A stretch of 64,000 bases of DNA from positions 3,497,283 through 3,561,282 of the forward strand of contig OZ250151.1 in the NCBI GenBank assembly GCA_965237725.1, given 5' to 3'. The notes below the pieces were generated by a model that did no database searches, was not told where the DNA came from, and saw only the letters and a program-made list of their open reading frames with translations. This stretch comes from Candidatus Spongiihabitans sp. Lineage in GTDB: Bacteria > Pseudomonadota > Gammaproteobacteria > Arenicellales > Poriferihabitantaceae. Positions within the stretch are counted from its first letter, which is position 1. Each line of letters begins with the position of its first letter. Positions 2,049 to 42,609 of the stretch are shown here, piece by piece. Position numbers and translations under genes: made by a program.

Positions 2049-2546
2049 TTGAATTGGAAATCTGATTTCAAATTCAACTACGATTGGAAAAACATGTATA
2101 AAATTATTCAAACCCCAGACATTGAAATACGCGACACTAAAACAAAAAAAGGTAGAGGCGTATACGCTTGTCGGGATTTTAAAAATAATGAAATTATCGA
2201 AATCTCTCCTTACATCGTATTAGAGGATCACTTCAGTTTAATACCTGATTGCCTACAGGAAATTGTGTATAACGGCAGCGGATTTAAGAAACTATCTCGC
2301 AAGGCTGAAAAAGAGGGCAAGCAGGTGTTAGCTATAGTATTGGGCTATGGCAGTATGTACAACCACGGAAATCCTGCCAATGTCAGCGCAAAACCAAATC
2401 CTAAAACCAGAATTATGGAATACAAATCGTTGCGGAAAATTACTAAGGGAACTGAGCTTTTGATTAACTACGATGCACTGTGGACGGGGGTTAGTAAGGG
2501 AAATAAATGGATTGCCCAACGAAAATTAAAATATATTAAGCCCTAA
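2049..2546 (+). CDS. SET-domain protein (putative protein-lysine methyltransferase)
   Basis: RGVYACRDFKNNEIIEISPYIVL matches the SET N-region. YNHGNPANV matches the NHSxxPN motif. GTELLINYD matches the ELxxDY motif. The track start is TTG at 2049; the ATG at 2094 is an alternative. The gene is visibly more A/T-rich than its neighbours. Confidence 0.7.
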   Translation: MNWKSDFKFNYDWKNMYKIIQTPDIEIRDTKTKKGRGVYACRDFKNNEIIEISPYIVLEDHFSLIPDCLQEIVYNGSGFKKLSRKAEKEGKQVLAIVLGYGSMYNHGNPANVSAKPNPKTRIMEYKSLRKITKGTELLINYDALWTGVSKGNKWIAQRKLKYIKP

Positions 2547-2647: not shown

Positions 2648-2854
2648 ATGCCCAAAATCACTAAAAACCAAATTGCACGCCGCAAAGCGCTTAAAACAAT
2701 GGCAATCGGTGGAGCCGCAGCGACTACTGCCAAGGAGCTTCCCGAACGCTGGGGAAAACCCGTAATTGATGGCGTCCTGTTACCCGCCCATGCGAAAATG
2801 AGTGGAAAAGGAAAAGGAAAAGGGAAAGGAGAACAACCAGAAGAAGGAAGTTAG
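2648..2854 (+). CDS. small exported peptide with a Tat-like leader and a (GK)n core
   Basis: 68-aa ORF with a GAGGA Shine-Dalgarno about 8 nt upstream. Contains RRKALK plus a hydrophobic stretch, then LPERWGKPVIDGVLLPAHA, then the tail KMSGKGKGKGKGEQPEEGS. The leader block is paralogous to the N-terminus of the 38278..39027 protein. Confidence 0.6.
   Translation: MPKITKNQIARRKALKTMAIGGAAATTAKELPERWGKPVIDGVLLPAHAKMSGKGKGKGKGEQPEEGS
2804..2830 (+). repeat. hexanucleotide tandem repeat (GGAAAA-like) encoding GKGKGKGKG
   Basis: The DNA reads gga aaa gga aaa gga aaa ggg aaa gga in frame with the 2648..2854 ORF. Confidence 0.9.
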
Positions 2855-3562: not shown

Positions 3563-4006
3563 TCAGGCGGCGGTTGTAACATAGGTTAAAACTTCAACTA
3601 CCTGTTCTGGAGTTGTTGCCCAGGCTAGGGCGGAAGCATCAACTTCTTTTAGCGGATGAATAATATCTTCATCGTGGAGGGTAATATAAGGCGTATTCAT
3701 AGCCGCACAAAAACCGGCGTCGAAGGCTGCATTCCATTGCTTGTATTTATCACCGAATCGAATCACTGCCAGGTCACATTGCTCAATCATTGTTCTGGTG
3801 CGAATACTGTTTACTTTGGAAGACTTGTGATCGCGCCAAAATCCAGATTCCTGTTCTCCCACACAGTCCCCCGCTGCATCGCTGGCCTCGTGATTGGTTA
3901 CCGGAGACAGGAATGAAACCGGTAGTTCCAGCGCTTCTGCCGCAGTTTTAATTTGTTCACGCCAGTCGGTGTGGATTTCTCCTGATAAATAGATTTCCCA
4001 ATGCAT
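3563..4006 (-). CDS. YtoQ-family protein (nucleoside 2-deoxyribosyltransferase-like fold)
   Basis: The N-terminus IYLSGEIHTDWREQI matches my recollection of the YtoQ family signature. Confidence 0.6.
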   Translation of the reverse strand: MHWEIYLSGEIHTDWREQIKTAAEALELPVSFLSPVTNHEASDAAGDCVGEQESGFWRDHKSSKVNSIRTRTMIEQCDLAVIRFGDKYKQWNAAFDAGFCAAMNTPYITLHDEDIIHPLKEVDASALAWATTPEQVVEVLTYVTTAA

Positions 4007-4055
4007 TATACTTCTCGGTTAGTTAATTGGCTGGATTGTACAGAAATTTTCTGAC

Positions 4056-4820
4056 TTAGCTTCGCGCAGAAATATATTCTGCGGTTATTTCCTTGAGGCG
4101 ATCCGGGCCGAAGCTTTCATCATGGCCACCATGGATCACAGCAGCGGGCAGGTTTTGCAATCTTTCCATGGTAATTAAATAGTCTTCAATATTGGAATCT
4201 TCCAGGGTGTCCAGCAATGGGCCATCGTAAATGGCGTCCCCTGAAAACAAGGTTGCAGTTTTTTCTTCCCACAATCCGATGCTGCCGGGCGAATGGCCGG
4301 GCAGGTGCATGACCTGGAAATGACGATCACCCAGATCCAGAATATCGCCATCGTCTACCAGCCAGGTTGGCGTAGCAGCAGGGGTGTGGAAACTATGCAA
4401 ATCGAATCCGGGTTTGGGCAAGGCGGTTATCATGCGCTCACTCTCAAGGGCATAGCCGGAGTCCCGCAAGCTATTGATTTCTTCAATAGGCCAGTCGTTT
4501 ACATCGAGACTGACTTGAGGTGGTGCGGATAGATTATCCGCTTCACATCGATGCACAACCCGGGTGTCAAATTCATACATACTGCCCATGTGATCCAGAT
4601 GAGTATGGGTGGCGACTACAATAACCGGTTTGCCCAGTAGATCTTCGATTTCATCTTTAAGACTGCTGATGCCCATTCCGGTATCAATTAACAGGTCATT
4701 CTCCCTGCCTTTTACATGCCAGATATTGCAGCGCAACAATTCGTCGACATGGGGTTCTCGAATCAAGGTGATATCGTCACTGATGGTATTTCGTTCGAAC
4801 CATCGATCTGCCAGTTTCAT
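4056..4820 (-). CDS. MBL-fold metallo-hydrolase
   Basis: Contains the THTHLDHMG (HxHxDH) metal motif and a downstream HLPGHSPG. Confidence 0.8.
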   Translation of the reverse strand: MKLADRWFERNTISDDITLIREPHVDELLRCNIWHVKGRENDLLIDTGMGISSLKDEIEDLLGKPVIVVATHTHLDHMGSMYEFDTRVVHRCEADNLSAPPQVSLDVNDWPIEEINSLRDSGYALESERMITALPKPGFDLHSFHTPAATPTWLVDDGDILDLGDRHFQVMHLPGHSPGSIGLWEEKTATLFSGDAIYDGPLLDTLEDSNIEDYLITMERLQNLPAAVIHGGHDESFGPDRLKEITAEYISARS

Positions 4821-4868
4821 AAGTTTGATTTCTCCTATTTGTTTTTTTGTGTAACTAGGAACTATAAC

Positions 4869-5651
4869 TTATCTGTTGGCAATATATTGTGTTGGGGTCA
4901 TGCCAAGGTTCTGTCGAAACATGGCAATAAATGCAGAAGGGGATTCATAACCCATTTCCAGGGCCACTGTGGTTACCGCCACACCTTCAGCCAGCCGTTC
5001 CAGTGCGGATAATAAAATTCGACGCCGGCGCCATTCTCCGAAAGTCATGCCGGTTTCCTGCTTGAAAAGCCGCGCCAGGGTTCGGCCGCTGGCACCCACC
5101 CTTGAACCATGCTGTTCAATGGTGCGTCGGTCCGTGGGATCAGATAATAATGCATTGGTTACAGCACTCAATCGTGGGTTGGACGATAGAGGTAGATGTA
5201 GCGGGGCGGGTTTGGCGCAACGAATACGATCCAGAATTACCATCATAAGTCGGTTATCTGATCCATTCTCATCCCAGGCTCGGGGTAATTTGGCAGCTTC
5301 CAGAATTAGATTTCTAAGCAGCACATCTACGCTAAGTACGGTGCAGGAGTCCGGCATCCCCACCACTTCACTCGCTGCAATATACAGGCTTCTAAACTTG
5401 GCCGGGCCGATGGGACGGATATCGTGAGTGACACCCGGCGGTAACCATACCGCCATTGCAGGTGGCGCGGTAAAGTGGCCGTCGTCGGTGAGTACGGTGA
5501 GCACACCCTCAGCGGAATAAGTAAACTGTCCCCATTTATGTGCGTGGGGCTTAAAGGTTTCTCCGTCGGCCATGTCGAATGCTCGAACCTCAACGGGACG
5601 AATCAGCCGGGTTGGAATTTCGTTTATTCGTGTTTGTCTGTTTTCCGACAT
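4869..5651 (-). CDS. AraC-family transcriptional regulator (cupin N-domain)
   Basis: C-terminal HTH region SGRTLARLFKQETGMTFGEWRRRRIL...GYESPSAFIAMFRQNLGMTP, with a cupin-like N-terminal half. Confidence 0.85.
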   Translation of the reverse strand: MSENRQTRINEIPTRLIRPVEVRAFDMADGETFKPHAHKWGQFTYSAEGVLTVLTDDGHFTAPPAMAVWLPPGVTHDIRPIGPAKFRSLYIAASEVVGMPDSCTVLSVDVLLRNLILEAAKLPRAWDENGSDNRLMMVILDRIRCAKPAPLHLPLSSNPRLSAVTNALLSDPTDRRTIEQHGSRVGASGRTLARLFKQETGMTFGEWRRRRILLSALERLAEGVAVTTVALEMGYESPSAFIAMFRQNLGMTPTQYIANR

Positions 5652-5736
5652 AACTTGTCATTATACCGAAATTCAGACGAAGTTAAGAGCGCTATATTAG
5701 CGCCATTAATTATCGGTAAATTTTGGGAGAATCATC

Positions 5737-6996
5737 TTGAGTCGTTTTGTACCCCGTTTCCTGCAAGGCTATGAAGGCATGCTGGTATTAATGGCATGCG
5801 CCATGGCGGTGAGTTTATACGGCTGGTTCACTTTGTTGAATAATTTTGTGGTTGAGCGCGCCGCATTTACCGGCCGTGAAATTGGATTTCTTCAGTCCAT
5901 TCGAGAGATTCCTGGTTTCCTTTCATTCCTGGCAATATTTTTACTGCCGTTTATGCGTGAGCAGAATCTGGCTTATTTTTCTTTGGCCATGCTGGGGATT
6001 GGTACCGCAATCACAGGGTTTTTTCCTTCGGAATACGCCCTCTATGCAACCACATTCTGGATGTCTATGGGGTTTCATTATTATGAAACCATGAACCAGT
6101 CCTTGACCTTGCAACTGGTTGACAAAGCCCATACCCCCGTGCATTTGGCGATGCAGTTAAAAGCATCATCTATCGGTACCCTGGGAATTTTTGCCGTCAT
6201 CATCTTGTGTTTCGATGAGAAAGTTTTAATCATGGTTCAGAATATTCTCGGTATGGAATCCAGCTTCACCGGTTTTGCACTTGGGTTCACACCGTTGTAC
6301 ATGATCGCAGGTATTTTCACCTTGGCAGTAGCAATATTTTGTAAATTTTATTACCCCATTTTTGAGTCCAAAGAAGTACAGCATAAAACATTATTTTTGC
6401 GTCAGCGTTACTGGTTATATTATGCATTGACCTTTATGGGTGGTGCTCGGCGTCAGATATTTATGGTATTTGCCGGATTTCTCATGGTGGAAAAATTCGG
6501 CTATGACGTGACTTCCATTACGCTTTTATATCTGATTAACCTGATTGCCAATATCTGGATTGCCCCATATGTCGGACGGTTCATAAAAAAGCTGGGAGAA
6601 AGAAAAGCACTGATCATTGAGTATGTCGGATTGATTGCCATCTTCGCAGGTTATGCCGTTGTCGACGATCATCGCATGGCTGCCGGGCTTTATATTCTCG
6701 ACCATCTATTTTTTGCGTTTGCTATTGCCATAAAAACTTACTTCCAGAAGATTGCAGATCCCAAAGATATTGCGTCCACCGCAGGCACCAGTTTCACCAT
6801 TAACCATATCGCTGCGGTCGGTATCCCGGCGGCATTCGGACTGATCTGGATCGGCGATCCTGGTCTGGTTTTTTACATGGGATCAGCTATGGCCGTGGTG
6901 TCCTTATTGCTTGCGCTTATGATTCCAGGAGATCCACGTCCGGGGCGAGAGACAACTTTAAGTGATCCCCAGCTTGAGCTGCAGCCCACAGACTGA
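5737..6996 (+). CDS. polytopic membrane transporter (MFS-like)
   Basis: 419 aa with about 12 hydrophobic segments. The track gives a TTG start. The family assignment is tentative. Confidence 0.5.
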   Translation: MSRFVPRFLQGYEGMLVLMACAMAVSLYGWFTLLNNFVVERAAFTGREIGFLQSIREIPGFLSFLAIFLLPFMREQNLAYFSLAMLGIGTAITGFFPSEYALYATTFWMSMGFHYYETMNQSLTLQLVDKAHTPVHLAMQLKASSIGTLGIFAVIILCFDEKVLIMVQNILGMESSFTGFALGFTPLYMIAGIFTLAVAIFCKFYYPIFESKEVQHKTLFLRQRYWLYYALTFMGGARRQIFMVFAGFLMVEKFGYDVTSITLLYLINLIANIWIAPYVGRFIKKLGERKALIIEYVGLIAIFAGYAVVDDHRMAAGLYILDHLFFAFAIAIKTYFQKIADPKDIASTAGTSFTINHIAAVGIPAAFGLIWIGDPGLVFYMGSAMAVVSLLLALMIPGDPRPGRETTLSDPQLELQPTD

Positions 6997-7068
6997 ATTT
7001 AGCCTGCTCGCTGGTAAAAAATAATGTTGTTGCCCATAAAATATAGCAAAAAATTATAACTGACATAT

Positions 7069-7590
7069 ATGACTGAACAAACCGCAAATCAAGCGCAAGA
7101 GATGATGCAACTGGCTCTGGCAGAATGCCAGGCCACGGTTAGGGGCTACGACACTAAGGCTCAGATTGTTGGGGTAGGTTACATCTTTGCCCTGGAAATT
7201 ATTTTCCAATTGTCCAAGCTGCTTCCCAGTATAGGGCAGGAAGTGGATTTGCCTTTTGTTGTCGGCGCCTGGGCGGTTATGATTTTTCCCATCGCATTAT
7301 TCGGGTTTGTACTTTATCCAACGCGAAAATCTGTCAAGCATTTGAAAATCCCTTCTAAAACGGTAAAAAGATCGCTCTACCTCGAGCCCGAGCGATACGA
7401 TAATCTGGGGCAATACATTGAGGAAGTCAAACAGGCCGATATCAACGAAGAGCTTGCCCACGAGCTATTCAAAATTTCCAGTCTGCGAGAGCTTAAAAGA
7501 AATCGCTTCCTTCGCGCATTATTTTCATCGGGGTTAGCATTTGTCGTATTGTTTGCTGGCCAGGTGGCCAGAGTGTTGTGGAATAGTTAA
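7069..7590 (+). CDS. small 3-TM membrane protein (possibly DUF5706/Pycsar-effector-like)
   Basis: 173 aa. YDTKAQIVGVGYIFAL precedes TM1. A second TM follows, then a helical cytosolic stretch, then a C-terminal TM. Confidence 0.4.
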   Translation: MTEQTANQAQEMMQLALAECQATVRGYDTKAQIVGVGYIFALEIIFQLSKLLPSIGQEVDLPFVVGAWAVMIFPIALFGFVLYPTRKSVKHLKIPSKTVKRSLYLEPERYDNLGQYIEEVKQADINEELAHELFKISSLRELKRNRFLRALFSSGLAFVVLFAGQVARVLWNS

Positions 7591-7606
7591 TCAATTAGGA
7601 GAGGAT

Positions 7607-8296
7607 ATGTCGAAAATGCAATTGATTCAGGCAGAAGTCTGTCCCTACGCCCAGCGCACCCATATGTGTTTGCTGGAAAAACAGCTGGATTTTGAAGTCA
7701 TTGAAGTTGACTTGAAAAACAAACCCGCATGGTTTGAGGAAATTTCACCATATAGCAAGGTGCCGGTATTGAAGGATGAAAATATAAGGTTGTATGAATC
7801 GACCATCATCAATGAATACCTTGATGAGGTGTACCAGGATCCGCCCTTGATGCCCGAAGTTTCTGGTGATCGCGCTATGGCCCGAACCTGGATTGATTTT
7901 GATAACGTCAAATTTGTACCTGCCTTTTATCAGGTTCTGCTGGAGCAGGATCTGGATAAACGCCAGGGCATTGCCGATGACCTGGTCGAACAAATGCAGT
8001 TTATGGAAAGCCAGGGATTCTCCAAAGATGCCAATGGACCTTATTGGTTTGGTGAAAAAATCTCGCTAGTGGACCTGGCCATTTATCCCCACTTCGAGCG
8101 CATCGGCGTATTGGAAGCTTATAGAAATATTTCAATTCCCCAATCCTGTTCGAGGTTAAGGGAATGGTTGGCTGCCATGCTGGAAAGACCCAGCGCAAAA
8201 GCCACTGCTCATGACAATAATTATCACGTTGATGCATACAGCCACTATGCCGATGGAACGGCTTCTGGAACCACGGCCAAGGATATGCGTCGATAA
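7607..8296 (+). CDS. glutathione S-transferase (thioredoxin-like N-domain)
   Basis: CPYAQRTHMCL active-site region and KVPVL, ESTIINEYLDE motifs. I chose the ATG at 7607, preceded by AGGAGAGG, over the track start at 7541. Confidence 0.8.
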   Translation: MSKMQLIQAEVCPYAQRTHMCLLEKQLDFEVIEVDLKNKPAWFEEISPYSKVPVLKDENIRLYESTIINEYLDEVYQDPPLMPEVSGDRAMARTWIDFDNVKFVPAFYQVLLEQDLDKRQGIADDLVEQMQFMESQGFSKDANGPYWFGEKISLVDLAIYPHFERIGVLEAYRNISIPQSCSRLREWLAAMLERPSAKATAHDNNYHVDAYSHYADGTASGTTAKDMRR

Positions 8297-8312
8297 AATG
8301 AGGTTTTTGGGG

Positions 8313-9029
8313 TTAGTCCAGAGACAAAAGCGCTAACCCAACGACGGCCAACATGGCCAATGCCATGAAGCAGTTAACAATAAACTGCATACGAGGGTTG
8401 AGGTTGAGTTGTTCGATCAGGCTGCCAGCGCCTAGCCAAAGCAGATGGATAGGTATCCAAATTAAATTAATAATCAGAAACTTGATTAATGTTTCTTCGA
8501 TTAACGAGTCAGCATGAAAAGCAAAACCACTGAACAAAGTGGTGTTGACCACATAGGCTTTTGGGTTGATCGCCTGGAGTATTAATGCCGCACGTATCCC
8601 GGGTATTTTATCTGCGAAAATAAATGCAATCTTCGAACCCGCAAATGCAATACGTAGTGCGAGGTAAAACAAATAGAGCGTTGAAAGCACCAGTAGGGTA
8701 TTGCGTGCCCAGTGGGTCGTCAGAATTACGGTGGCGAGACCAGACACCACAGCAAGGGCAACCAGGTTTGTACCTATACATAATCCAATTACATATCGAA
8801 TCCCAGCACGAAAACCAAAAGCCGCACCAACCCCTGCAGTTGACAAGACGCCGGGTCCCGGGGTTATCAACAGCAGGAATACTGCGATACTAAATGCGAT
8901 CATGGCTTGGAATTCTACAGTAAACGATTTGTGGCTTGATTCGAGTAACTGATTAAATTTGTCGGCAATTTTTACATCATCCAGATTTACGTTGTTTTGA
9001 TTAGCGTTGATAACCATTAACAAAATCAT
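8313..9029 (-). CDS. LysE/RhtB-family amino-acid exporter
   Basis: Contains LLITPGPGV and multiple TM segments. The real start is probably the internal Met at 8903 (MIAFSIAVF...). Confidence 0.75.
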   Translation of the reverse strand: MILLMVINANQNNVNLDDVKIADKFNQLLESSHKSFTVEFQAMIAFSIAVFLLLITPGPGVLSTAGVGAAFGFRAGIRYVIGLCIGTNLVALAVVSGLATVILTTHWARNTLLVLSTLYLFYLALRIAFAGSKIAFIFADKIPGIRAALILQAINPKAYVVNTTLFSGFAFHADSLIEETLIKFLIINLIWIPIHLLWLGAGSLIEQLNLNPRMQFIVNCFMALAMLAVVGLALLSLD

Positions 9030-9200
9030 CAGTTCAGACCGGGCCGGGGGATATCAATTCGGAGGTCTTATCTCAAAACATCAGGATAAAGGGGCAGATT
9101 AAATTGTCTTGGTCAAGCGTCCCATTTGATCTGTACCCTCGTCAAATCTGTGCTGTTTTGCTATGATATACATCAGATCGATTTCAGTGGAGGGTACAAT

Positions 9201-9629
9201 ATGAGTAACGTAGGTGAAATTCTGGATGGAAGGCCCAATAATATTTGGAGTGTTCAATCTGACCAATCGGTGCTCGATGCAATTCGATTAATGGCCGAAA
9301 AGGGGATCGGTGCGTTGCTGGTAATCGACAATAACAAATTATCCGGGATTTTCAGTGAACGAGATTATGCGCGCAAGGTTGTACTAGAAGACCGATCTTC
9401 AAGTGACACATTGGTCAGTGACATCATGACCAGTAAAGTGCAGACCACCAGTCGGCAGACCAGTGTATCGGAATGCATGTCTCTTATGACAGATAATGAT
9501 TTTCGTCATCTGCCTGTGGTTGAGAACGATAAGGTACTAGGGATGATCTCAATTGGTGATCTGGTCAAAACTATAATCAAGGAACAGCAAAATACCATAG
9601 AACAGTTAGAACACTATATCTCAGGTTGA
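9201..9629 (+). CDS. CBS-domain pair protein
   Basis: Two CBS repeats (IGALLVID...GIFSERD and FRHLPVVENDKVLGMISIGD). The ATG at 9201 follows GGAGGG. Confidence 0.8.
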   Translation: MSNVGEILDGRPNNIWSVQSDQSVLDAIRLMAEKGIGALLVIDNNKLSGIFSERDYARKVVLEDRSSSDTLVSDIMTSKVQTTSRQTSVSECMSLMTDNDFRHLPVVENDKVLGMISIGDLVKTIIKEQQNTIEQLEHYISG

Positions 9630-9663
9630 TCTGATAAAAGATATGATGCCTGAAAATTTAAAT

Positions 9664-12129
9664 CTAATTTAGGTGTTCCCGACTTAAAGCATAGGCTAGT
9701 TTTTCGACCAGAATTTTCACATGGTCATTGTTAAATACCATGGGTGGTCGAATTTTTAGAACGTTATTGTGGATTCCATCAATTCCAATGAGAACCCCCT
9801 GGCGCTTCATCTGATTCGCAACCCAGGTTGCTTTTTCTGGTGCGGGTTCCTGAGTTTGGCGATCATTAACCAGTTCAACGCCAATAAATAGTCCACTGCC
9901 ACGGACATCACCAATAATCGAATGATGTTCCATAAGTGATTGGAGCCCATTGATTAAATTGCCGCCCACATCATTGGCGTTCACCATCAGGTTTTCATCT
10001 TCGATAACATCAAGCATCGCAAGTGCGGCGGCGCAGGCAACGGGATTTCCGCCGGTTGTACTGAAAAATTCATGGGTTGCTTCGAACTTTTGAGAAATTT
10101 CACGGGTGGTTACCACCAGTCCCATGGGATATCCGCCCGCAATGGGTTTACCAAAAGTAACAATATCCGGACTGATGTCACCAAACTGGAATCCCCACAT
10201 GTGTTTTCCGGTTCGGCCGAAACCCGACTGGACTTCATCAGCGATACACAGTGCGCCTGCATCTCGGGCGATTTTATAAACCGCTTCGAGATAATCCGGA
10301 GGCGACGTGAAAATGCCGCTGCTACTCATGATCATGTCCATAATAAAACTTGCAGGCTTGTGTCCATGATCACTCAATTGGGCAATGGCAGTCCTGCAAT
10401 ATTCAGCATACTTGGGTCCGCGATTCGGGTCATCGCGCTTCCAGGGCCCTCGATAGTCGTTGGGCCCAGGGAAGGCTGCAATAAATTCTTGGGATTTTTT
10501 TGAACCGTCATGACTATAGGGTGTTAGGTGATCTGTGGCTTCGGTGATGCCATGGTAGGCATTTTCAAGCACCAGTCCCCCCTGATTTCCGGTCCATGAT
10601 TTTGACAGGCGCCAGGCCAGATCATTGGCTTCGCTGCCTGAAGATACAAAATAGCAGCAGTCGAGGCCATCGGGCAAAGTAGCGGTCAGCCGCTCGGCGT
10701 ATTGGGTAATGACATCGTATAGATACCGCGTATTGGTATTGAGTGTAGCGGTTTGTCTTGCGATGGCATCTACAATTCGTGGATGGCAATGACCGGCATG
10801 AGGCACATTGTTATAGGCGTCAAGGAATGCATTACCGTTTGTATCGTAGAGCCAGACACCTTTGCTGCGGACCACATGCACAGGCTCATCGTAGGCAAAA
10901 TGGCGTGCATTACCAAGGTATTGCTGCCTGCGTCGAAACTGATCATCCAGATGATTGGAATTGTTGCCGTGGATTGCTCCGGAGACATGAACACCGCAGA
11001 CATTTCTGAATAACGTTTCAATTTGTTTCGGGCCGGTTGTCTGAATGATTTCGAGCATGGCGATGGACTTTTCATGCCAGCCAATCAGGTATTCACGATC
11101 ATCATTCCATTGGGCCTCACTGGATGACCAGGCATCAATCATGATGCCCATGGCCAGTCGAGTTGCCATTAAATCGGGTAAAAGCTTAAATTCGATGTCC
11201 TCCAATGGAGAGACGGCGTGAAAACCAGATACGATTTCAGCGCATTGGGCTAATGAGTCGATACAGCCTGCGCCGATTTCAGAAGTGGTGGTTGCCAGGT
11301 CCTGAATCAGCGGTGCATGAATCATATCTCCAAAATCAAAAATACCAGAAATAACAGTGGGATTATCTGGATCAACTACCGTATTGTGAAACGAAACATC
11401 ATTGTGAATAACCTGGGTACGACAACCGGCTAAGTTTGGTTTGACCTCGGTTTCAAAACGGGTCATCACCTCTAAAATTTGCTGCTTGACCTCATCGTCT
11501 CCAATGAATATCTCCAGTCCCTTGAGTTGATCGAAGCATTGAATGTTCCAGCCCAATGGGTGTTGAGCGGCAGGGTGGAAGAAACCTCTGAGGGCCAAAT
11601 TCATTTTGGCAAGCTTGTTGCCTAGATCTAACATTAACCTGGAATCTTCCGGAGCGTGATCAAACTGAATTCCAGGCATGAAATTGAAACCACGAACTCG
11701 CATATCTACCCCGGACTTTAATTTACAGGTTCCCCAGTTTTTACCTTCGATAGTTGTTATCAGATTTGAAACAGGCAGCGAAGGGTCTCGTGCTTGTATG
11801 TGCGCCAATGCCTGACATTGCATATCAAGCAATTGATCGGGCTCAGCGGTGTTTGCTATTTTTATTAAATAGTCGCCTTGGTCGGACTTCAGACGATAGT
11901 TGCAATCCCTTTCTCCACCAAGGATTTTTATATCGCCTGCCAGTCCAAAAATGTTTTGTGCGATTTCCTTGACCTCGCTTATGGAAACCTCAGGAGGCGG
12001 TACGCGAAGTGAGTCAAGTAGGTGGGTCAAGATTGTGGAATGCCGAAGTAATTTAGTGTTCCCTAGGTTGGCCAGGTATCGGAGATAGTATAGCCCGTTG
12101 GCAGGGGGTCGTCGTGTTCCAGAATCCAT
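9664..12129 (-). CDS. fusion protein: aminoglycoside-phosphotransferase-like kinase plus class-III PLP aminotransferase-fold domain
   Basis: The N-terminal half has the kinase catalytic loop IHNDVSFHN and FDFGD. The C-terminal half has DEVQSGFGRTG and TFGKPIAGGYP (PLP lysine). The start is uncertain because the ATG at 12129 overlaps the upstream gene by 67 nt. Confidence 0.8.
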   Translation of the reverse strand: MDSGTRRPPANGLYYLRYLANLGNTKLLRHSTILTHLLDSLRVPPPEVSISEVKEIAQNIFGLAGDIKILGGERDCNYRLKSDQGDYLIKIANTAEPDQLLDMQCQALAHIQARDPSLPVSNLITTIEGKNWGTCKLKSGVDMRVRGFNFMPGIQFDHAPEDSRLMLDLGNKLAKMNLALRGFFHPAAQHPLGWNIQCFDQLKGLEIFIGDDEVKQQILEVMTRFETEVKPNLAGCRTQVIHNDVSFHNTVVDPDNPTVISGIFDFGDMIHAPLIQDLATTTSEIGAGCIDSLAQCAEIVSGFHAVSPLEDIEFKLLPDLMATRLAMGIMIDAWSSSEAQWNDDREYLIGWHEKSIAMLEIIQTTGPKQIETLFRNVCGVHVSGAIHGNNSNHLDDQFRRRQQYLGNARHFAYDEPVHVVRSKGVWLYDTNGNAFLDAYNNVPHAGHCHPRIVDAIARQTATLNTNTRYLYDVITQYAERLTATLPDGLDCCYFVSSGSEANDLAWRLSKSWTGNQGGLVLENAYHGITEATDHLTPYSHDGSKKSQEFIAAFPGPNDYRGPWKRDDPNRGPKYAEYCRTAIAQLSDHGHKPASFIMDMIMSSSGIFTSPPDYLEAVYKIARDAGALCIADEVQSGFGRTGKHMWGFQFGDISPDIVTFGKPIAGGYPMGLVVTTREISQKFEATHEFFSTTGGNPVACAAALAMLDVIEDENLMVNANDVGGNLINGLQSLMEHHSIIGDVRGSGLFIGVELVNDRQTQEPAPEKATWVANQMKRQGVLIGIDGIHNNVLKIRPPMVFNNDHVKILVEKLAYALSREHLN

Positions 12130-36088: not shown

Positions 36089-37117
36089 TCAAACGATATC
36101 CGTGTTCAATAAACTGGCATCCCAGTTGTCTGGGTCGGTTAAATCAACGCCATTGATATTTTGAAAACTTAATCTTTGGGTATTGAAATTAGTTAGCAAA
36201 TAGGGGCGCTGGGCTGTTTCTATTTCGATGGATACTGCAAATTGGTTTTCCGTCAAAAGTTCAAGTAGGGATGCTGGGATTGCAACCGAGGATATTGCGA
36301 TTGGATTGTGTCTTATAGCTTTAACAATATATTCAACCACTGCGGCGTAAGTTTCATCTGTATCTGCGCTCAGTTGCAGAATACATATCGTATTGGAAGT
36401 TCGATTTCTTCCCAGAATAGCGTAACCACATAATTCCGAATTATCAGCATAAATTACCCGATACTCGCAGCCCGGATTCAATAGACGCCACTTAAAAAAT
36501 TCAGCAGTTTTATATGTGGTTGCAGGGTAAGGGTCGGATTGAACTTGACAATAATGAGCTAACTCATTTTCGCGTAATGGGCCGCTGGATAGTCTAATCC
36601 CCAAAGCTTTAGAAGCTGCACTGGGCAATTGATCCAGATCACTAAAAGGTAAGCCTTGTTTCATCGCACCTCCAGACCCAGATTTGTAATATATATCCCA
36701 CGGTCCAACGGTGAGCCAGTTACGCCGTTGGGATAATCCTGCGACAACAGGCCCAGGGCTGAGATTTATTCCAAAGTCGAATTTTTGCTCCAAAGCCAAT
36801 TCGAACAAGGCATCTGTCATTTTACTCACCAGGCCTCTGCCTTCGTAAGATTCCCGTACCACGGTGCCACCAAAACAGGCCAGCTTTTTTGGTTCTAAAG
36901 ACGCGCCAATTTTCCACTCCAGACCATAGGCATTACGAGTACCCACTACCTCTCCACTGTCTATGGCAACAACAACGAGGGGTTGATCAGAAACCGGATT
37001 TGCAATGTGCTTCCATTTAAATATCTGAGCAAGGCGCTGGGGCGTGGCGCTGGATAGGCGTTGGTATAAGATCAGAAGATCTTCCAGGTAACGAATATGA
37101 AATGGAACAATTTCCAT
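36089..37117 (-). CDS. GNAT-fold acyltransferase-like protein (two-lobed)
   Basis: VVRESYEGRGLVSKM fits the GNAT acyl-CoA-binding R/Q-x-x-G-x-G/A motif. It is the last gene of the 39027->36089 minus-strand cluster. Confidence 0.55.
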   Translation of the reverse strand: MEIVPFHIRYLEDLLILYQRLSSATPQRLAQIFKWKHIANPVSDQPLVVVAIDSGEVVGTRNAYGLEWKIGASLEPKKLACFGGTVVRESYEGRGLVSKMTDALFELALEQKFDFGINLSPGPVVAGLSQRRNWLTVGPWDIYYKSGSGGAMKQGLPFSDLDQLPSAASKALGIRLSSGPLRENELAHYCQVQSDPYPATTYKTAEFFKWRLLNPGCEYRVIYADNSELCGYAILGRNRTSNTICILQLSADTDETYAAVVEYIVKAIRHNPIAISSVAIPASLLELLTENQFAVSIEIETAQRPYLLTNFNTQRLSFQNINGVDLTDPDNWDASLLNTDIV

Positions 37118-37154
37118 AATGTCAGAAATTAACGTTTACGCTATGGTTTAGCAG

Positions 37155-38207
37155 CTATATTTTTAGTCGTTGGAAACCACCCCAATTTTCCAGTGGTTCA
37201 TAATTTTCTGATTCCAGTTGCAGGTCTTTTATAATCAGGCCAATCATGTCTTCGATAAGTTGGTATTTTAGGTTGCCCGAATATTCTGGCGTCATCGCCG
37301 GGCCACGATTACATTCGATAAGCCAGGGCTGCATGTTGCTATCGATCATCATATCCAGACCAATCAATTCGAAGCACATACGTGGGTCACCTAATAACTT
37401 ATTTGTTGTTGCCTGTAATGGTTCAGTGATGGAATTGAGGGTATCTATAAGGATTTTCTCAATTTGCGCCCATGTATTGGATCCGGCGGTTGTTTTTGAC
37501 GCATAGGATTGCCAATATTCAATGGTGCGACAATGAATCTCGGCGTCATAGTCCGGGTGGGTGGATTGGACCCCTGAATTGGTGTTGTACATGTAGTCAC
37601 TGACCAAAGGATCGTGTCCCGGTTCATAGGGAATGACACACAAGTCGGTACAACCTTCATTATATAAATAGGCGGTTAATGGATTGGTATTGACGATCAG
37701 AAGATACAGCCGAAGATTGTATTTACAGCCGTCAATCAAATGAACGTCATCGAGATATTCCTGTACCAGCCATTCCCCCGAGATCGGCATTTCTGACACA
37801 TCATTAACCCGTCTGATATATCTTCCCCAGGATCCACCTCTTGGTTTTATTAGCCATTGACCGCAGTCAAATATTTTCGAGATATCATCCTTTTGATCGG
37901 GCCAAAGATAGCTTTTTGGGAAATATCGCGGAAAATTGTCTTTATCGTGATTATTAGAATAGGCGTTGGAGAGATTTTGAAACAGCGACCACTTGTTGGT
38001 CAGTACAGATATGCCAGGAATATGGTTAATTCTCCGACCGGTAGGGATATGTTTGTAAAAATCCCGGGGTGGTTCTTTGTCGTTGTACCAGAGAATATCC
38101 CAATCGGGTGTTTCAACCTGAATTACGCCGGCGTTTTTGAAACCCTGGATGACAACCTGTGCGGATGGGTCGGATACAGGGCCGACAAATCCAAACTTTG
38201 TTGCCAT
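37155..38207 (-). CDS. tubulin-tyrosine-ligase (TTL/TTLL)-family ATP-grasp enzyme
   Basis: Four serial TTL-family blocks are present: RINHIPGISVLTNKWSLFQNL, WLIKPRGGSWGRYI, VQEYLDDVHLIDGCKYNLRLYLLIV and CFELIGLDMMIDSNMQPWLIECNRGPAM. Confidence 0.8.
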   Translation of the reverse strand: MATKFGFVGPVSDPSAQVVIQGFKNAGVIQVETPDWDILWYNDKEPPRDFYKHIPTGRRINHIPGISVLTNKWSLFQNLSNAYSNNHDKDNFPRYFPKSYLWPDQKDDISKIFDCGQWLIKPRGGSWGRYIRRVNDVSEMPISGEWLVQEYLDDVHLIDGCKYNLRLYLLIVNTNPLTAYLYNEGCTDLCVIPYEPGHDPLVSDYMYNTNSGVQSTHPDYDAEIHCRTIEYWQSYASKTTAGSNTWAQIEKILIDTLNSITEPLQATTNKLLGDPRMCFELIGLDMMIDSNMQPWLIECNRGPAMTPEYSGNLKYQLIEDMIGLIIKDLQLESENYEPLENWGGFQRLKI

Positions 38208-38277
38208 GAAGTTTGTTAGTTAGAAACAAATTCGCATGTTTTGGGTTGTACCAAAAGTAGATCAAATTGTGATCGGG

Positions 38278-39027
38278 CTAGGGGGTCACTTTTACTATAA
38301 TTTTTGAGCCCATAGAATCGCCGCAGCCGGGAACACAGATAAATTGATCTGTCGGCACAAGGTTGGCGGTAAACTTTATACTTTTGCAAGATTTATTTCC
38401 GTTGTCCTCATTAAAAATATCGAATGCTCCCGTTACGGTCATTGCATCAGGGTCATACTCCATACTGAATAGGTCCACCCTCTCCTGATCATCTTCAATG
38501 TCAATACTCTCATCAATTCTCAAAATCGATGTGTCCACGAGTTTATTGTCTGGCAGGAGGGTAGAGCTTGTCTGGCCAGTGCATTCCTGAAACCCACCGG
38601 TAGTACTAAAACAGATATCGACGTCACCATTTTGGAGGATTCGAAATATGACAATAATGTTTATTTTATTATCCTGGCAGGCAGACTCACCCACATCATT
38701 GTGATAGCTGTCCAGTGCTGAGGCGGTTGGGATGACACTTTCCAGTGTAGCTGGTATAAGCCCTTCCAGCAGGGTATTGCCTTCCCACCATTTGGAATTA
38801 TCAGCCATATCGATAGCTTCAGTTGTAAATATGCCTAGAGGTGACATCATGGCATGAGCAGGCAGAAATACCGTATCAACAACAGGTTTTCGCCAGGTTT
38901 CTGGCAAAGCCTGGCTGCCCGCCACTAATCCGCCAGAAGCAACCAGCGACTTAAGCGCTGTACGTCGGTGGATATTTGGTGTGGTATTGGATTTCCCGAA
39001 TATTTTGTCTTTATCGATATTTCTCAT
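38278..39027 (-). CDS. exported hypothetical protein with the Tat-like leader shared with the 2648..2854 peptide
   Basis: HRRTALKSLVASGGLVAGSQALPETWRKPVVDTVFLPAHAMMS aligns ungapped with the small peptide's leader. The mature part is about 190 aa with 6 Cys and no family I recognise. Confidence 0.65.
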   Translation of the reverse strand: MRNIDKDKIFGKSNTTPNIHRRTALKSLVASGGLVAGSQALPETWRKPVVDTVFLPAHAMMSPLGIFTTEAIDMADNSKWWEGNTLLEGLIPATLESVIPTASALDSYHNDVGESACQDNKINIIVIFRILQNGDVDICFSTTGGFQECTGQTSSTLLPDNKLVDTSILRIDESIDIEDDQERVDLFSMEYDPDAMTVTGAFDIFNEDNGNKSCKSIKFTANLVPTDQFICVPGCGDSMGSKIIVKVTP

Positions 39028-39256
39028 AATTCTGCCTCAAATTCTGTTAACCCATTAGGTAGCGTTAAATTGTGCGGCAATTGGTTGATGCTGTCAAAAG
39101 ATTATTGGGAAATATTGGGTAAAAACCGATTAATACGGATGTTGAAATCCTATTTGCACAATTTTGATGTCCATATGCTGGTTAATCTTTTGCAAAAAAT
39201 AGTGTATCGTTGAAAAAATACAATTTATCTAATCGAAACGTAAAGAGAATCTCGAA

Positions 39257-41529: not shown

Positions 41530-42609
41530 TTATCGCTGTTGAAATGGAATTTCGCAATAGGGGTCGAGTTCGATAATTTCACTAATCGGTAAATTGCCAT
41601 GAGGGGCATAGGCCCAGCTCGGCAGAACCATGGAATAGGTTCCCATGCCGCCGGCGACAACCAGCATGATTTGATCAACATGTTGTAGTGCGCGAAAACC
41701 TGATTCGGGTTCCTCTGATTCAATGGCCAGGTCACCATAGATCGATTTCCCATAGTCAGAGGACATCACAGCAAATTCCATCATTTGTGCCCGTGCGCTC
41801 TCACGCGTGTAGCCCGCTTTGAAAAGAATCGTCGCATGTTCCGGACAAATCACCACAACCAGCCCACCGTTACCTCCGCGATAGATGTTGTTACTGCCGG
41901 GATTAGCGATCACGCCACCAATTATTTTCAACAAACGCAATGCATCCGAGTCGATGTCCTCGGTAGGTTCCATGATCAGGGAATGGGGCGCTTCCACAGC
42001 AATGACCGTAGCCACACTTTGATCAGCTTTGAATCCTTTGGTCACATGATAGGGCTCAAACGGCGATTCATGCTCGGCTTCGGCGAAACAGGCGGAGAAT
42101 TTTCCCGGTGTGCTGAATATGGCCATATCGCTGGAACCCGGCTTACGTCCGCCGATATTGATAATGGCCAGGGAAAGGGCCCTGCCAATGGCCGCGCTGG
42201 CTCGGTTGCCAGGGCCAAGGATGCCTGCACCCGATGCGATGGGGCCGCATAAATCCCGCGCCGGACCGTTTACGATGATTAATGGTGCAAGGCAGTGGGT
42301 GGTTTGATTGACCTCGGTCAAATCAAATTCCGGTCGGCAAACTGCTTTTACAGCGGCCACCACCACTGGAAAATATCCGGGCATACAACCCGCCATCACC
42401 GCAGATGCCGCAACCAGCTCTACCCTGGCCGCGCCCTGTTTAGGACCCATTTCACCCAACACCAAATCCGGGTCAAGGTCGGTGCTCGACATCATGGCTT
42501 CGATTCTTGTTTGCGTGGGAATGACCACGGGCAGACCATCGGTACAGCCCTGGGCGTGCAGAAGCTCGAGGGCGGCTTCTTCATCAGCAGCTTCAAGCTG
42601 CCTGGGCAT
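41530..42609 (-). CDS. conserved hypothetical protein (partner of the UGSC-family gene)
   Basis: 359 aa with GCTDGLPVVIPT near the N-terminus. Its start overlaps the upstream gene's end by 17 nt. Confidence 0.5.
   Translation of the reverse strand: MPRQLEAADEEAALELLHAQGCTDGLPVVIPTQTRIEAMMSSTDLDPDLVLGEMGPKQGAARVELVAASAVMAGCMPGYFPVVVAAVKAVCRPEFDLTEVNQTTHCLAPLIIVNGPARDLCGPIASGAGILGPGNRASAAIGRALSLAIINIGGRKPGSSDMAIFSTPGKFSACFAEAEHESPFEPYHVTKGFKADQSVATVIAVEAPHSLIMEPTEDIDSDALRLLKIIGGVIANPGSNNIYRGGNGGLVVVICPEHATILFKAGYTRESARAQMMEFAVMSSDYGKSIYGDLAIESEEPESGFRALQHVDQIMLVVAGGMGTYSMVLPSWAYAPHGNLPISEIIELDPYCEIPFQQR

Follow-up and report, generated by a model that had tools for sequence, protein, structure and literature searches.

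To our knowledge, enzymes from the families of tubulin tyrosine ligase (TTL) and TTL-like (TTLL) proteins are known almost entirely as eukaryotic tubulin modifiers. The scattered bacterial homologs have so far been read as stolen host-manipulation tools, and the descriptions available of L. longbeachae Llo2200 and of the TTL of Ca. Endoriftia persephone interpret both as eukaryote-like effectors directed at host tubulin. A bacterial origin of the TTL family has been argued from comparative genomics (PMC3495828). We analyzed a stretch of 64,000 nucleotides (nt), hereafter the window, from the gammaproteobacterium Candidatus Spongiihabitans sp. (assembly GCA_965237725.1, contig OZ250151.1, positions 3,497,283 to 3,561,282), in which the gene of a TTL-family ligase of 350 amino acids (aa) lies next to the gene of an exported protein of 249 aa (the cargo). 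The strict linkage of such a TTLL-type ligase to an exported protein, described below, provides a concrete and cloneable candidate substrate. Two genes and a mass spectrometer make the role of bacterial TTLs, and the role of the family before tubulin, directly testable.

Like the window ligase, Llo2200 and the Endoriftia enzyme are encoded by TTL-family genes in Gammaproteobacteria, and Endoriftia has SET proteins as well; the available descriptions of these enzymes, with which the present clade was compared by description only, report no bacterial partner gene. The nearest functional bacterial analogue of the system proposed here is RimK, an ATP-grasp ligase adding Glu residues to ribosomal protein S6 (RpsF) (PMC4431377, PMC11957791). 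RimK is likewise a bacterial ATP-grasp ligase acting on one specific protein, but it belongs to a different ATP-grasp family and its substrate is cytoplasmic, ribosomal and without an export leader. For the modification of a precursor with an export signal ahead of its export, the nearest analogue is the bufferins, signal-peptide-bearing precursors, many of them Cys-containing, that are modified and then exported, the signal peptide standing where modified ribosomal peptides classically have their leader (PMC11626156, PMC12452194). Bufferins rely on Sec-type signals, on enzymes of the MNIO (DUF692) type and on small peptides of the DUF2282 type, whereas the present locus has a leader resembling those of twin-arginine translocation (Tat) with a long conserved c-region, an ATP-grasp enzyme and a folded cargo of 190 aa. 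In Tat signals that are bound by redox enzyme maturation protein (REMP) chaperones, conservation past the RR motif reflects a second, pre-export function (PMC3712460, PMC3316669). Here, no REMP-like gene is linked to the locus, and the extension LPExWxKPVVDSVxLPAHA is found on thousands of unrelated cargos and not on one enzyme family. An operonic association of a peptide-bond-forming ATP-grasp enzyme with GNAT genes is known in bacteria for R2K.3 (Burroughs, Zhang & Aravind 2015; PMC4431377); the window ligase comes from a different ATP-grasp clade, and its association with a GNAT gene was seen in one genome only. A first-pass annotation of the window, made from the sequence alone, had stated that no bacterial system of such composition was known to be described. 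The pairing of a TTL with this cargo was indeed in no paper that we found, although an earlier mention of bacterial TTL contexts is possible.

The three genes of the locus and the two parts of the cargo discussed below are the following.

38278..39027, minus strand: gene of the exported pre-protein, 249 aa (open reading frame (ORF) list)
37155..38207, minus strand: gene of the TTL/TTLL-family ATP-grasp ligase, 350 aa (ORF list and Pfam TTL)
36089..37117, minus strand: GNAT-family gene, 342 aa (ORF list and Pfam Acetyltransf_1)
38851..38967, minus strand: leader core of the exported protein, RR-T-ALK, a Gly/Ala-rich h-region and LPETWRKPVVDTVFLPAHA with an AxA-type signal-peptidase end (motif scan and leader hidden Markov model (HMM))
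38308..38670, minus strand: beta-rich cargo domain, residues ~120-240 (AlphaFold2 (AF2) model from a 25-sequence alignment, predicted local distance difference test (pLDDT) ~85-96)

The 350-aa protein matched Pfam TTL (PF03133) with 148.7 bits (E = 2.7e-43, cut-off 20.1) over profile positions 9-281 of 292. The other ATP-grasp models of Pfam and NCBIfam scored far lower (ATPgrasp_YheCD 36 bits, ATPgrasp_ST 21 bits, LysX E = 0.013), and no RimK or glutathione-synthetase model of these collections matched at E <= 1. These scores rule out a RimK, LysX or YheCD identity and agree with the first-pass assignment of the protein to the TTL/TTLL family rather than to RimK, glutathione synthetase or another ATP-grasp family. 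The PDB was searched with a sequence profile of the 350-aa protein and its nine closest relatives. All matches were protein-modifying TTL or TTLL enzymes or the TTL-like PBY1, with TTLL6 (195.7 bits) and TTLL7 (189 bits) ahead of TTLL11 (115 bits), the glycylase TTLL3 (111 bits) and tubulin tyrosine ligase (~80 bits). By homology, the enzyme is thus a genuine TTLL-type ligase, nearest to the glutamylases TTLL6 and TTLL7 rather than to the glycylase TTLL3 or the tyrosine ligase TTL.

With the eukaryotic TTLL6 and TTLL7 (PDB 6vzt and 4ylr; best PDB matches, 189-196 bits), the window ligase has in common the family PF03133, the ATP-grasp blocks and the Mg- and ATP-binding residues. The signature blocks INH(I)PG, IKP (K121), VQEY, KYNLR and CFELIGLD(285)...PWLIE(298)CN(300) are present. 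In a 10-sequence alignment of the clade, the ATP-binding Lys K121 and the Mg-binding positions D285, E298 and N300 are invariant and are aligned to their TTLL6/7 equivalents. The nearly invariant R301 is a basic residue aligned to TTLL6 H362, and in TTLL6 this His forms a salt bridge to the acceptor Glu at its free carboxylate (Mahalingan et al., bioRxiv 10.1101/2020.06.07.139295). Unlike TTLL6 and TTLL7, the window ligase is a core of 350 aa: the alignments to TTLL6 (453-822 aa constructs) and TTLL7 stop at the catalytic core and show no microtubule-binding extension. The KFDLR block is replaced by KYNLR or KYILQ in the bacterial clade, the residue that is Q or R in the eukaryotic enzymes is W (N in the relatives), the enzyme comes from a bacterium, and what it presumably modifies is an exported protein of that bacterium and not tubulin. 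Because it has no microtubule-binding region and a non-canonical discriminator residue, the ligase is predicted not to belong to the tubulin-binding TTLL subgroups. It is also predicted to be cytoplasmic, since no signal peptide was found on it; neither a hydrophobic N-terminus nor another recognizable secretion signal was seen.

Every obtainable contig with a TTL homolog was fetched and then searched by tblastn with the window proteins. A homolog of the 249-aa protein adjoins the TTL gene in all six other independent contigs (L001/L005, L002, L003, L004, L006 and L008), which have enough sequence around the TTL to be judged and the close TTL homologs of which are 38-44% identical to the window ligase; with the window included, the pairing is found in 7/7 loci. 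The paired cargo homologs carry the same leader and the same Cys pattern as the 249-aa protein. The gene order is cargo-TTL in the window and in L003, and TTL-cargo in L001, L002, L004 and L006. In L008 (205-3229), the cargo gene sits between two TTL genes, whose products belong to paralog groups A (KYILQ) and B (KYTLR) and are 54-61% identical to each other. Over 5 loci, TTL identity and cargo identity change together (r = 0.98, with non-independent pairs). No gene for a transporter or for another biosynthetic step is conserved along with the pair in the compared loci. Extra synteny in L001, L004 and L006 (genes of a 354-aa membrane protein and of proteins of 125 and 175 aa) is limited to one lineage of metagenome-assembled genomes (MAGs) and is not in the window, so that only the TTL-cargo pair is retained. 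The TTL clade is small, with 11 proteins in a collection of 5.8 billion. Scans with the TTL alignment gave one locus in 185,579 species-representative genomes and one locus among metagenome contigs, the latter on a contig already in the set, while viral contigs (TTL, leader and SET queries) and plasmids (TTL and leader queries) gave no match. Since the clade is so rare, repeated adjacency by chance is implausible, and the TTL and cargo genes are a conserved two-gene module. The implication holds in one direction: every member of the TTL clade has a cargo gene, and most genes of the cargo or leader family are without a TTL.

Some details of the duplicated ligases can be added. The B-type TTL (KYTLR) retains the Arg of the eukaryotic KFDLR block. 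The proteins P0004 (B) and P0010 (A) come from one contig of 3,260 nt, where the arrangement of L008 is probably repeated. The A/B pair of L008 recalls the division of labour between initiases and elongases among eukaryotic TTLLs.

The first-pass annotation had read all three genes as a substrate-plus-modifier cassette. The TTL-cargo part of this proposal is kept across the loci, but the GNAT part is not: tblastn found a homolog of the 342-aa GNAT (GNAT342) in 0/6 other TTL loci. In L004, the 8 kb upstream of the TTL gene are free of GNAT342, as are, in L001, the 5.4 kb downstream of the cargo gene. A three-gene cassette is therefore ruled out, and the conserved unit is two genes. The two-lobed GNAT fold that had been claimed for the 342-aa protein was seen for one lobe. 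The N-terminal lobe (residues 42-112) passes Pfam Acetyltransf_1 with 28.5 bits (cut-off 20.7), and the second lobe gave only a sub-threshold match to Acetyltransf_18 (E = 0.029, 14.5 bits against a cut-off of 22.7). The two halves have no detectable similarity to each other, a PDB sequence search with the protein gave no match, and the single-sequence AF2 model (pLDDT 39.5) was not used. The GNAT lies outside the conserved module, as a lineage-specific downstream neighbour that is probably co-transcribed with the pair.

The 249-aa pre-protein is made up of an extended Tat-like leader (residues 1-59) and an acidic mature part of 190 aa with six Cys. It was described in the first-pass annotation as unrecognizable and Cys-containing, and no Pfam or NCBIfam match was found for it; the six Cys are invariant across six aligned homologs. 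Acidic residues outnumber basic ones in the mature part (D+E 31, K+R 11), and the mature TTL-linked cargos in general are strongly acidic (D+E 17-31 against K+R 5-11). The AF2 model is of low confidence for the leader and for residues 60-120. Its beta-rich domain weakly resembles calycin-type barrels of eight strands: the best Foldseek match in the PDB was nitrobindin 3wjf (E = 0.017), followed by avidins and lipocalins, none at E <= 0.001. A conserved acceptor tail was considered for the cargos and ruled out, as the C-termini vary among homologs. E182 is the only invariant Glu of the mature part and ends an acidic loop, MDxSID...QEV, in the TTL-linked proteins; as a speculation, this loop may be a site of modification.

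In a six-frame translation, the leader pattern RRxALK...LPExWxKPVxDxVxLPAHA occurs in exactly two copies in the window, at 38851-38967 (minus strand) and at 2678-2794 (plus strand), the second of these in a 68-aa peptide with a (GK)n sequence. A leader HMM built from 149 other proteins scored 74.8 bits for the 249-aa protein and 75.7 bits for the 68-aa peptide (E ~1e-22), the next window ORF scored 10 bits, and no further leader copy was detected in the window with this model. The two leaders, which lie 35 kb apart, are thus paralogous, as had been noticed at first pass. A word-indexed search with a leader-only alignment returned just two further small peptides. An exhaustive HMMER search of 1.84 billion cluster representatives, for which a leader-centred profile retaining some cargo columns was used as the query, gave 4,214 representatives at E <= 1e-3 and 1,066 at E <= 1e-10.

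Descriptive statistics of the leader family refer to the top 149-150 matches listed of these 4,214. Among them, the leader has a mean pairwise identity of 56% and the consensus sRRklLKs.aaGgGav.agk.LPe.W.kPVvdsV.LPAHAqts. The cargos of at least 30 aa, 140 in number, form at least 70 BLAST-unlinked groups; cargo length runs from 7 to 259 aa (median 142; 14/149 below 40 aa), and most cargos contain four or six Cys. Examples are a Big_9 plus Hint-like protein and a Gly-rich protein. By eye, the consensus SRRKLLKS, the Gly/Ala-rich h-region and LPAHA as an AxA site resemble a Tat signal peptide, and the conserved stretch of 19 residues between the h-region and the cleavage site is atypical for one. 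No curated family was found for leader or cargos: Pfam and NCBIfam scans of at least 35 members gave only sub-threshold or borderline Tat-signal matches and stray DUF matches. The named entries are called 'hypothetical protein', and the sole organism label is that of a MAG, 'marine bacterium B5-7'. A literature search for 'LPAHA' returned zero occurrences, and no description of the family was found. The first-pass annotation had allowed that the motif might belong to a known and functionally explained family, for which neither a curated model nor a paper was found. A second, partial copy of the leader end (LL..LIxPxAHA) lies ~40 residues past LPAHA in TTL-linked cargos (for example L001:3738-3770) and is degenerate in the window protein (LIPATLESVIPTASAL, region 38710-38730, minus strand). 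LIxPxAHA recurs in 19/149 of the leader-family proteins listed, including the unrelated cargos P0155, P0088 and P0044. It suggests a second processing site bounding a pro-segment, or a recognition motif.

The neighbourhoods of leader genes were sampled in four further loci. The leader gene has LysR and YjiS as neighbours in L013, and small GNATs and a ferredoxin in L016. MerC is found in L014, where two leader genes stand in tandem (950-2068), and L015 has three leader genes within ~6 kb (4001-10636), among MBOAT and GMC-oxidoreductase genes. The multiple nearby copies in L014 and L015 point to local paralog expansion. No recurrent modifier and no TTL, SET or GNAT342 homolog was found in L013-L016. 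The first-pass annotation had suggested that a common leader marks substrates for eukaryote-type enzymes of post-translational modification (PTM). This idea did not survive: with 4,214 representatives, at least 70 unrelated cargo groups and mixed neighbourhoods, the exhaustive search and the neighbourhood sampling exclude a general role of the leader as a PTM tag. The co-occurrence of leader motif and TTL that was looked for is one-way only, as the leader genes of L013-L016 show. The leader is better seen as serving export or maturation in general, across a very large and undescribed family of secreted proteins, than as a recognition tag for PTM enzymes. Since it heads unannotated secreted proteins in more than 4,000 clusters, it marks a sizeable blind spot in the annotation of the marine bacterial secretome, and it may indicate an unrecognised step in export, proofreading or processing.

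Two side observations concern the family. P0058 joins the leader to a Big_9-like Ig domain and to a Hint-like module of the intein/hedgehog type, each with a sub-threshold Pfam score; the cargos include domains of an autoprocessing type. Of the top 149 leader-family proteins, 23 end in Asp and 10 in Glu, and acidic C-termini seem more frequent than a typical amino-acid composition would suggest.

Taking module, ligase and cargo together, we propose that a cytoplasmic TTLL-type ligase modifies the acidic neighbouring pre-protein before export, a reading to which we give an even chance. The ligase would use ATP to attach one amino acid or several to the pre-protein encoded next to it, while this is still in the cytoplasm, glutamate being the most probable residue by homology. 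The acceptor would be a carboxylate of the substrate, at the C-terminus or on an acidic side chain, for example in the loop MDxSID...QE(182)V, and export and removal of the leader at LPAHA would follow. Modification would be cytoplasmic and precede export because the TTL has no hydrophobic N-terminus and is ATP-dependent. A twin-arginine leader (SRRKLLK, compared with the consensus SRRxFLK given in PMC3712460) would fit export after folding and modification. The acidic mature cargos are plausible substrates because the acceptor groove of TTLL6 is positively charged (bioRxiv 10.1101/2020.06.07.139295).

Several points weigh against this proposal. We infer the enzyme-substrate relation, the donor amino acid, the site, the Tat dependence and the pre-export timing from gene linkage and homology, and adjacency speaks for functional linkage and is not proof that one gene product is the substrate of the other. 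At the position of TTLL6 Q180, all TTLLs have Q if they are elongases and R if they are initiases (Mahalingan et al., bioRxiv 10.1101/2020.06.07.139295). Its equivalent is W127 in the window ligase and N in the MAG-clade consensus, neither Q nor R, so that the chemistry of the TTLLs is not safely transferable; homology gives no reliable call on the regiochemistry or the donor amino acid of this enzyme. In the bacterial clade, the KFDLR block has N, I, T or A in place of D (KYNLR in the window), and paralog group A has Q in place of R. The cargos vary in their C-terminal tails, and that of the window protein, GDSMGSKIIVKVTP, has no Glu. The six conserved Cys point to disulfides formed in the periplasm, which are harder to reconcile with Tat export of a folded protein. 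The assignment to Tat itself draws on motif resemblance: TIGR01409 scores 12-19.2 bits in leader-family members (cut-off 16.7) and does not match the 249-aa protein. In addition, two cargo relatives were found without a TTL. P0026 (L014) matches the window cargo with 36% identity over 230 aa, a similarity on a par with that of the TTL-linked homologs, and has no adjacent TTL on its short contig of 2 kb; P0021 (body-family, L013) has no TTL within 3.5 kb. The family at large therefore needs no such modification.

The second leader copy of the window and its neighbour bear on the alternatives and are as follows.

2049..2546, plus strand: SET-domain protein, 165 aa (Pfam PF00856, 36.1 bits against a cut-off of 22.4)
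2648..2854, plus strand: pre-peptide with the same leader, 68 aa (ORF list; leader HMM 75.7 bits)

The SET match covers profile positions 1-104 of 105, and the SET gene lies 101 nt upstream of the pre-peptide gene on the same strand. The earlier observation of the same leader beside a SET-domain gene is thus borne out by both profiles. The predicted mature product of the pre-peptide (P0016 in the protein collection) is KMSGKGKGKGKGEQPEEGS, a Lys-rich sequence with (GK)5, and is a candidate methylation substrate. The pairing is a single case: no second example was obtained, and no SET homolog was found in any fetched locus or in viral contigs. A short precursor with a candidate modifier alongside would fit the format of peptides that are ribosomally synthesized and modified after translation (RiPPs), in this one case. 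The 249-aa protein does not have the features of a RiPP-type system, its cargo being folded and of 190 aa, the family median 142 aa, and most sampled neighbourhoods without modifiers.

The cargo and the ligase could also be linked without being substrate and enzyme. The ligase would then make a small peptide or amino-acid conjugate, or modify another protein, and the exported barrel would bind, carry or sense the product outside the cytoplasm. This is an unlikely explanation in our estimate, although the one cargo domain that was modelled with confidence has a weak likeness to ligand-binding barrels of the calycin type (nitrobindin, avidin, lipocalin), the discriminator residues of the ligase are unlike those of all protein-modifying TTLLs (W127; D to N in KYNLR), and the cargos have no evident conserved acceptor tail. 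Against these points, the fold matches are non-significant (best E = 0.017), every PDB match of the ligase is a protein-modifying TTL/TTLL or the TTL-like PBY1, and the pair has no co-conserved transporter or additional biosynthetic gene. We have little confidence in the ligase as a host-directed effector that acts on eukaryotic tubulin or another host protein, with its secreted neighbour accessory or co-inherited. In favour are tubulin polyglutamylases as its nearest characterised relatives, the accounts of L. longbeachae and Ca. Endoriftia persephone, which call bacterial TTL and SET proteins eukaryote-like, and the SET protein that the window also encodes. However, the ligase is core-only (350 aa) without a microtubule-binding extension or a recognizable secretion signal, and an effector gene would not be expected to stay strictly next to the gene of one bacterial exported protein, in either order and with the ligase duplicated.

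Still less credence is given to a unified, RiPP-like system in which the shared leader would be the recognition element that brings diverse precursors to eukaryote-type PTM enzymes (TTL, SET, GNAT). Each leader gene of the window adjoins the gene of an enzyme seldom seen in bacteria (TTL in one case, SET with a Lys-rich core in the other), and two short leader peptides lie near candidate modifiers elsewhere (glycosyltransferases in L009; an ATP-grasp-like protein and a protease in L010). But the family is huge (4,214 representatives), its cargos are mostly folded domains of ~140 aa with 14/149 of those listed below 40 aa, L013-L016 have no recurrent modifier, TTL or SET, the GNAT is not conserved, and no RiPP recognition element or leader-binding protein was seen. 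A broader form of the proposed pre-export modification, to which we give a small chance, would have the extended twin-arginine leader (SRRKLLKS...LPESWxKPVVDSVxLPAHA) define a route of export and maturation in uncultured marine Gammaproteobacteria that is so far undescribed. Its long conserved c-region would dock precursors or keep them in the cytoplasm, and TTLL-like ligases, SET methyltransferases and glycosyltransferases would modify a subset of cargos before Tat export; the TTL-cargo pair would represent an ancestral, pre-tubulin function of the family. If this were true, there would be bacterial secreted proteins with polyglutamyl-type or methyl-lysine marks.

Short leader peptides stand beside candidate modifiers in the window, L009 and L010, each a single case. 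In L009 (7033-7272), a 79-aa leader peptide, P0017, is encoded between GT2/GT7C, GT8 and pyruvyl-transferase genes, and its C-terminal N(L)DY[DE]IV motif is common to P0033 from another sample. In L010 (5614-9487), genes of a DcsG_N-type ATP-grasp-like protein, a trypsin-like protease and an FHA-domain membrane protein are followed by that of a 71-aa leader peptide, P0018, after which comes a 127-aa Cys-containing ORF. The peptide-plus-FHA arrangement of L010 recurs in L011 and L012.

The layout of the window locus was examined for expression signals. The minus-strand ORFs were confirmed at the coordinates listed above, and with them the three co-directional genes with spacers of 70 and 37 nt of the first-pass annotation. 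One further element was noted.

39069..39097, minus strand: promoter-like -35/-10 pair, TTGACA-17-CACAAT (consensus match only)

The pair lies 42 nt 5' of the start codon of the 249-aa gene, within an upstream gap of 472 nt, and a GAGG Shine-Dalgarno motif is found 7 nt ahead of the ATG. No minus-strand terminator-like hairpin was detected in either intergenic gap of the three genes; the sole minus-strand terminator-like match (38960-38944) is inside the coding sequence of the 249-aa gene. With a promoter-like pair upstream and gaps free of terminator-like hairpins, co-transcription of the three genes is plausible.

The flanking genes are ordinary and encode a MerR/SoxR-like regulator, a thioredoxin-TPR protein, a DUF2288 protein and a small GNAT, and the gene of a Rieske-domain protein is convergent with the 342-aa GNAT gene. 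A 359-aa ORF near the operon (41530-42609, minus strand) is without a Pfam match at E <= 0.001. No tRNA gene was found in the window. The window proteins that were looked up are all singletons at 90% identity, and the genome is therefore from a sparsely sampled lineage. Finally, the distant TTL homolog of L007 (7135-8211; 28% identity) is in an unrelated context, on a GC-rich contig that also has sulfatase and MFS/spermine-synthase genes. A 38-aa Lys-rich ORF, MKTKKKSVAQGLIEQLKKRLSFKIKSKVRAGSESSRGG (L007:7009-7125), ends 10 nt before this TTL gene, and the two may be another, different pair of a ligase and a small substrate.

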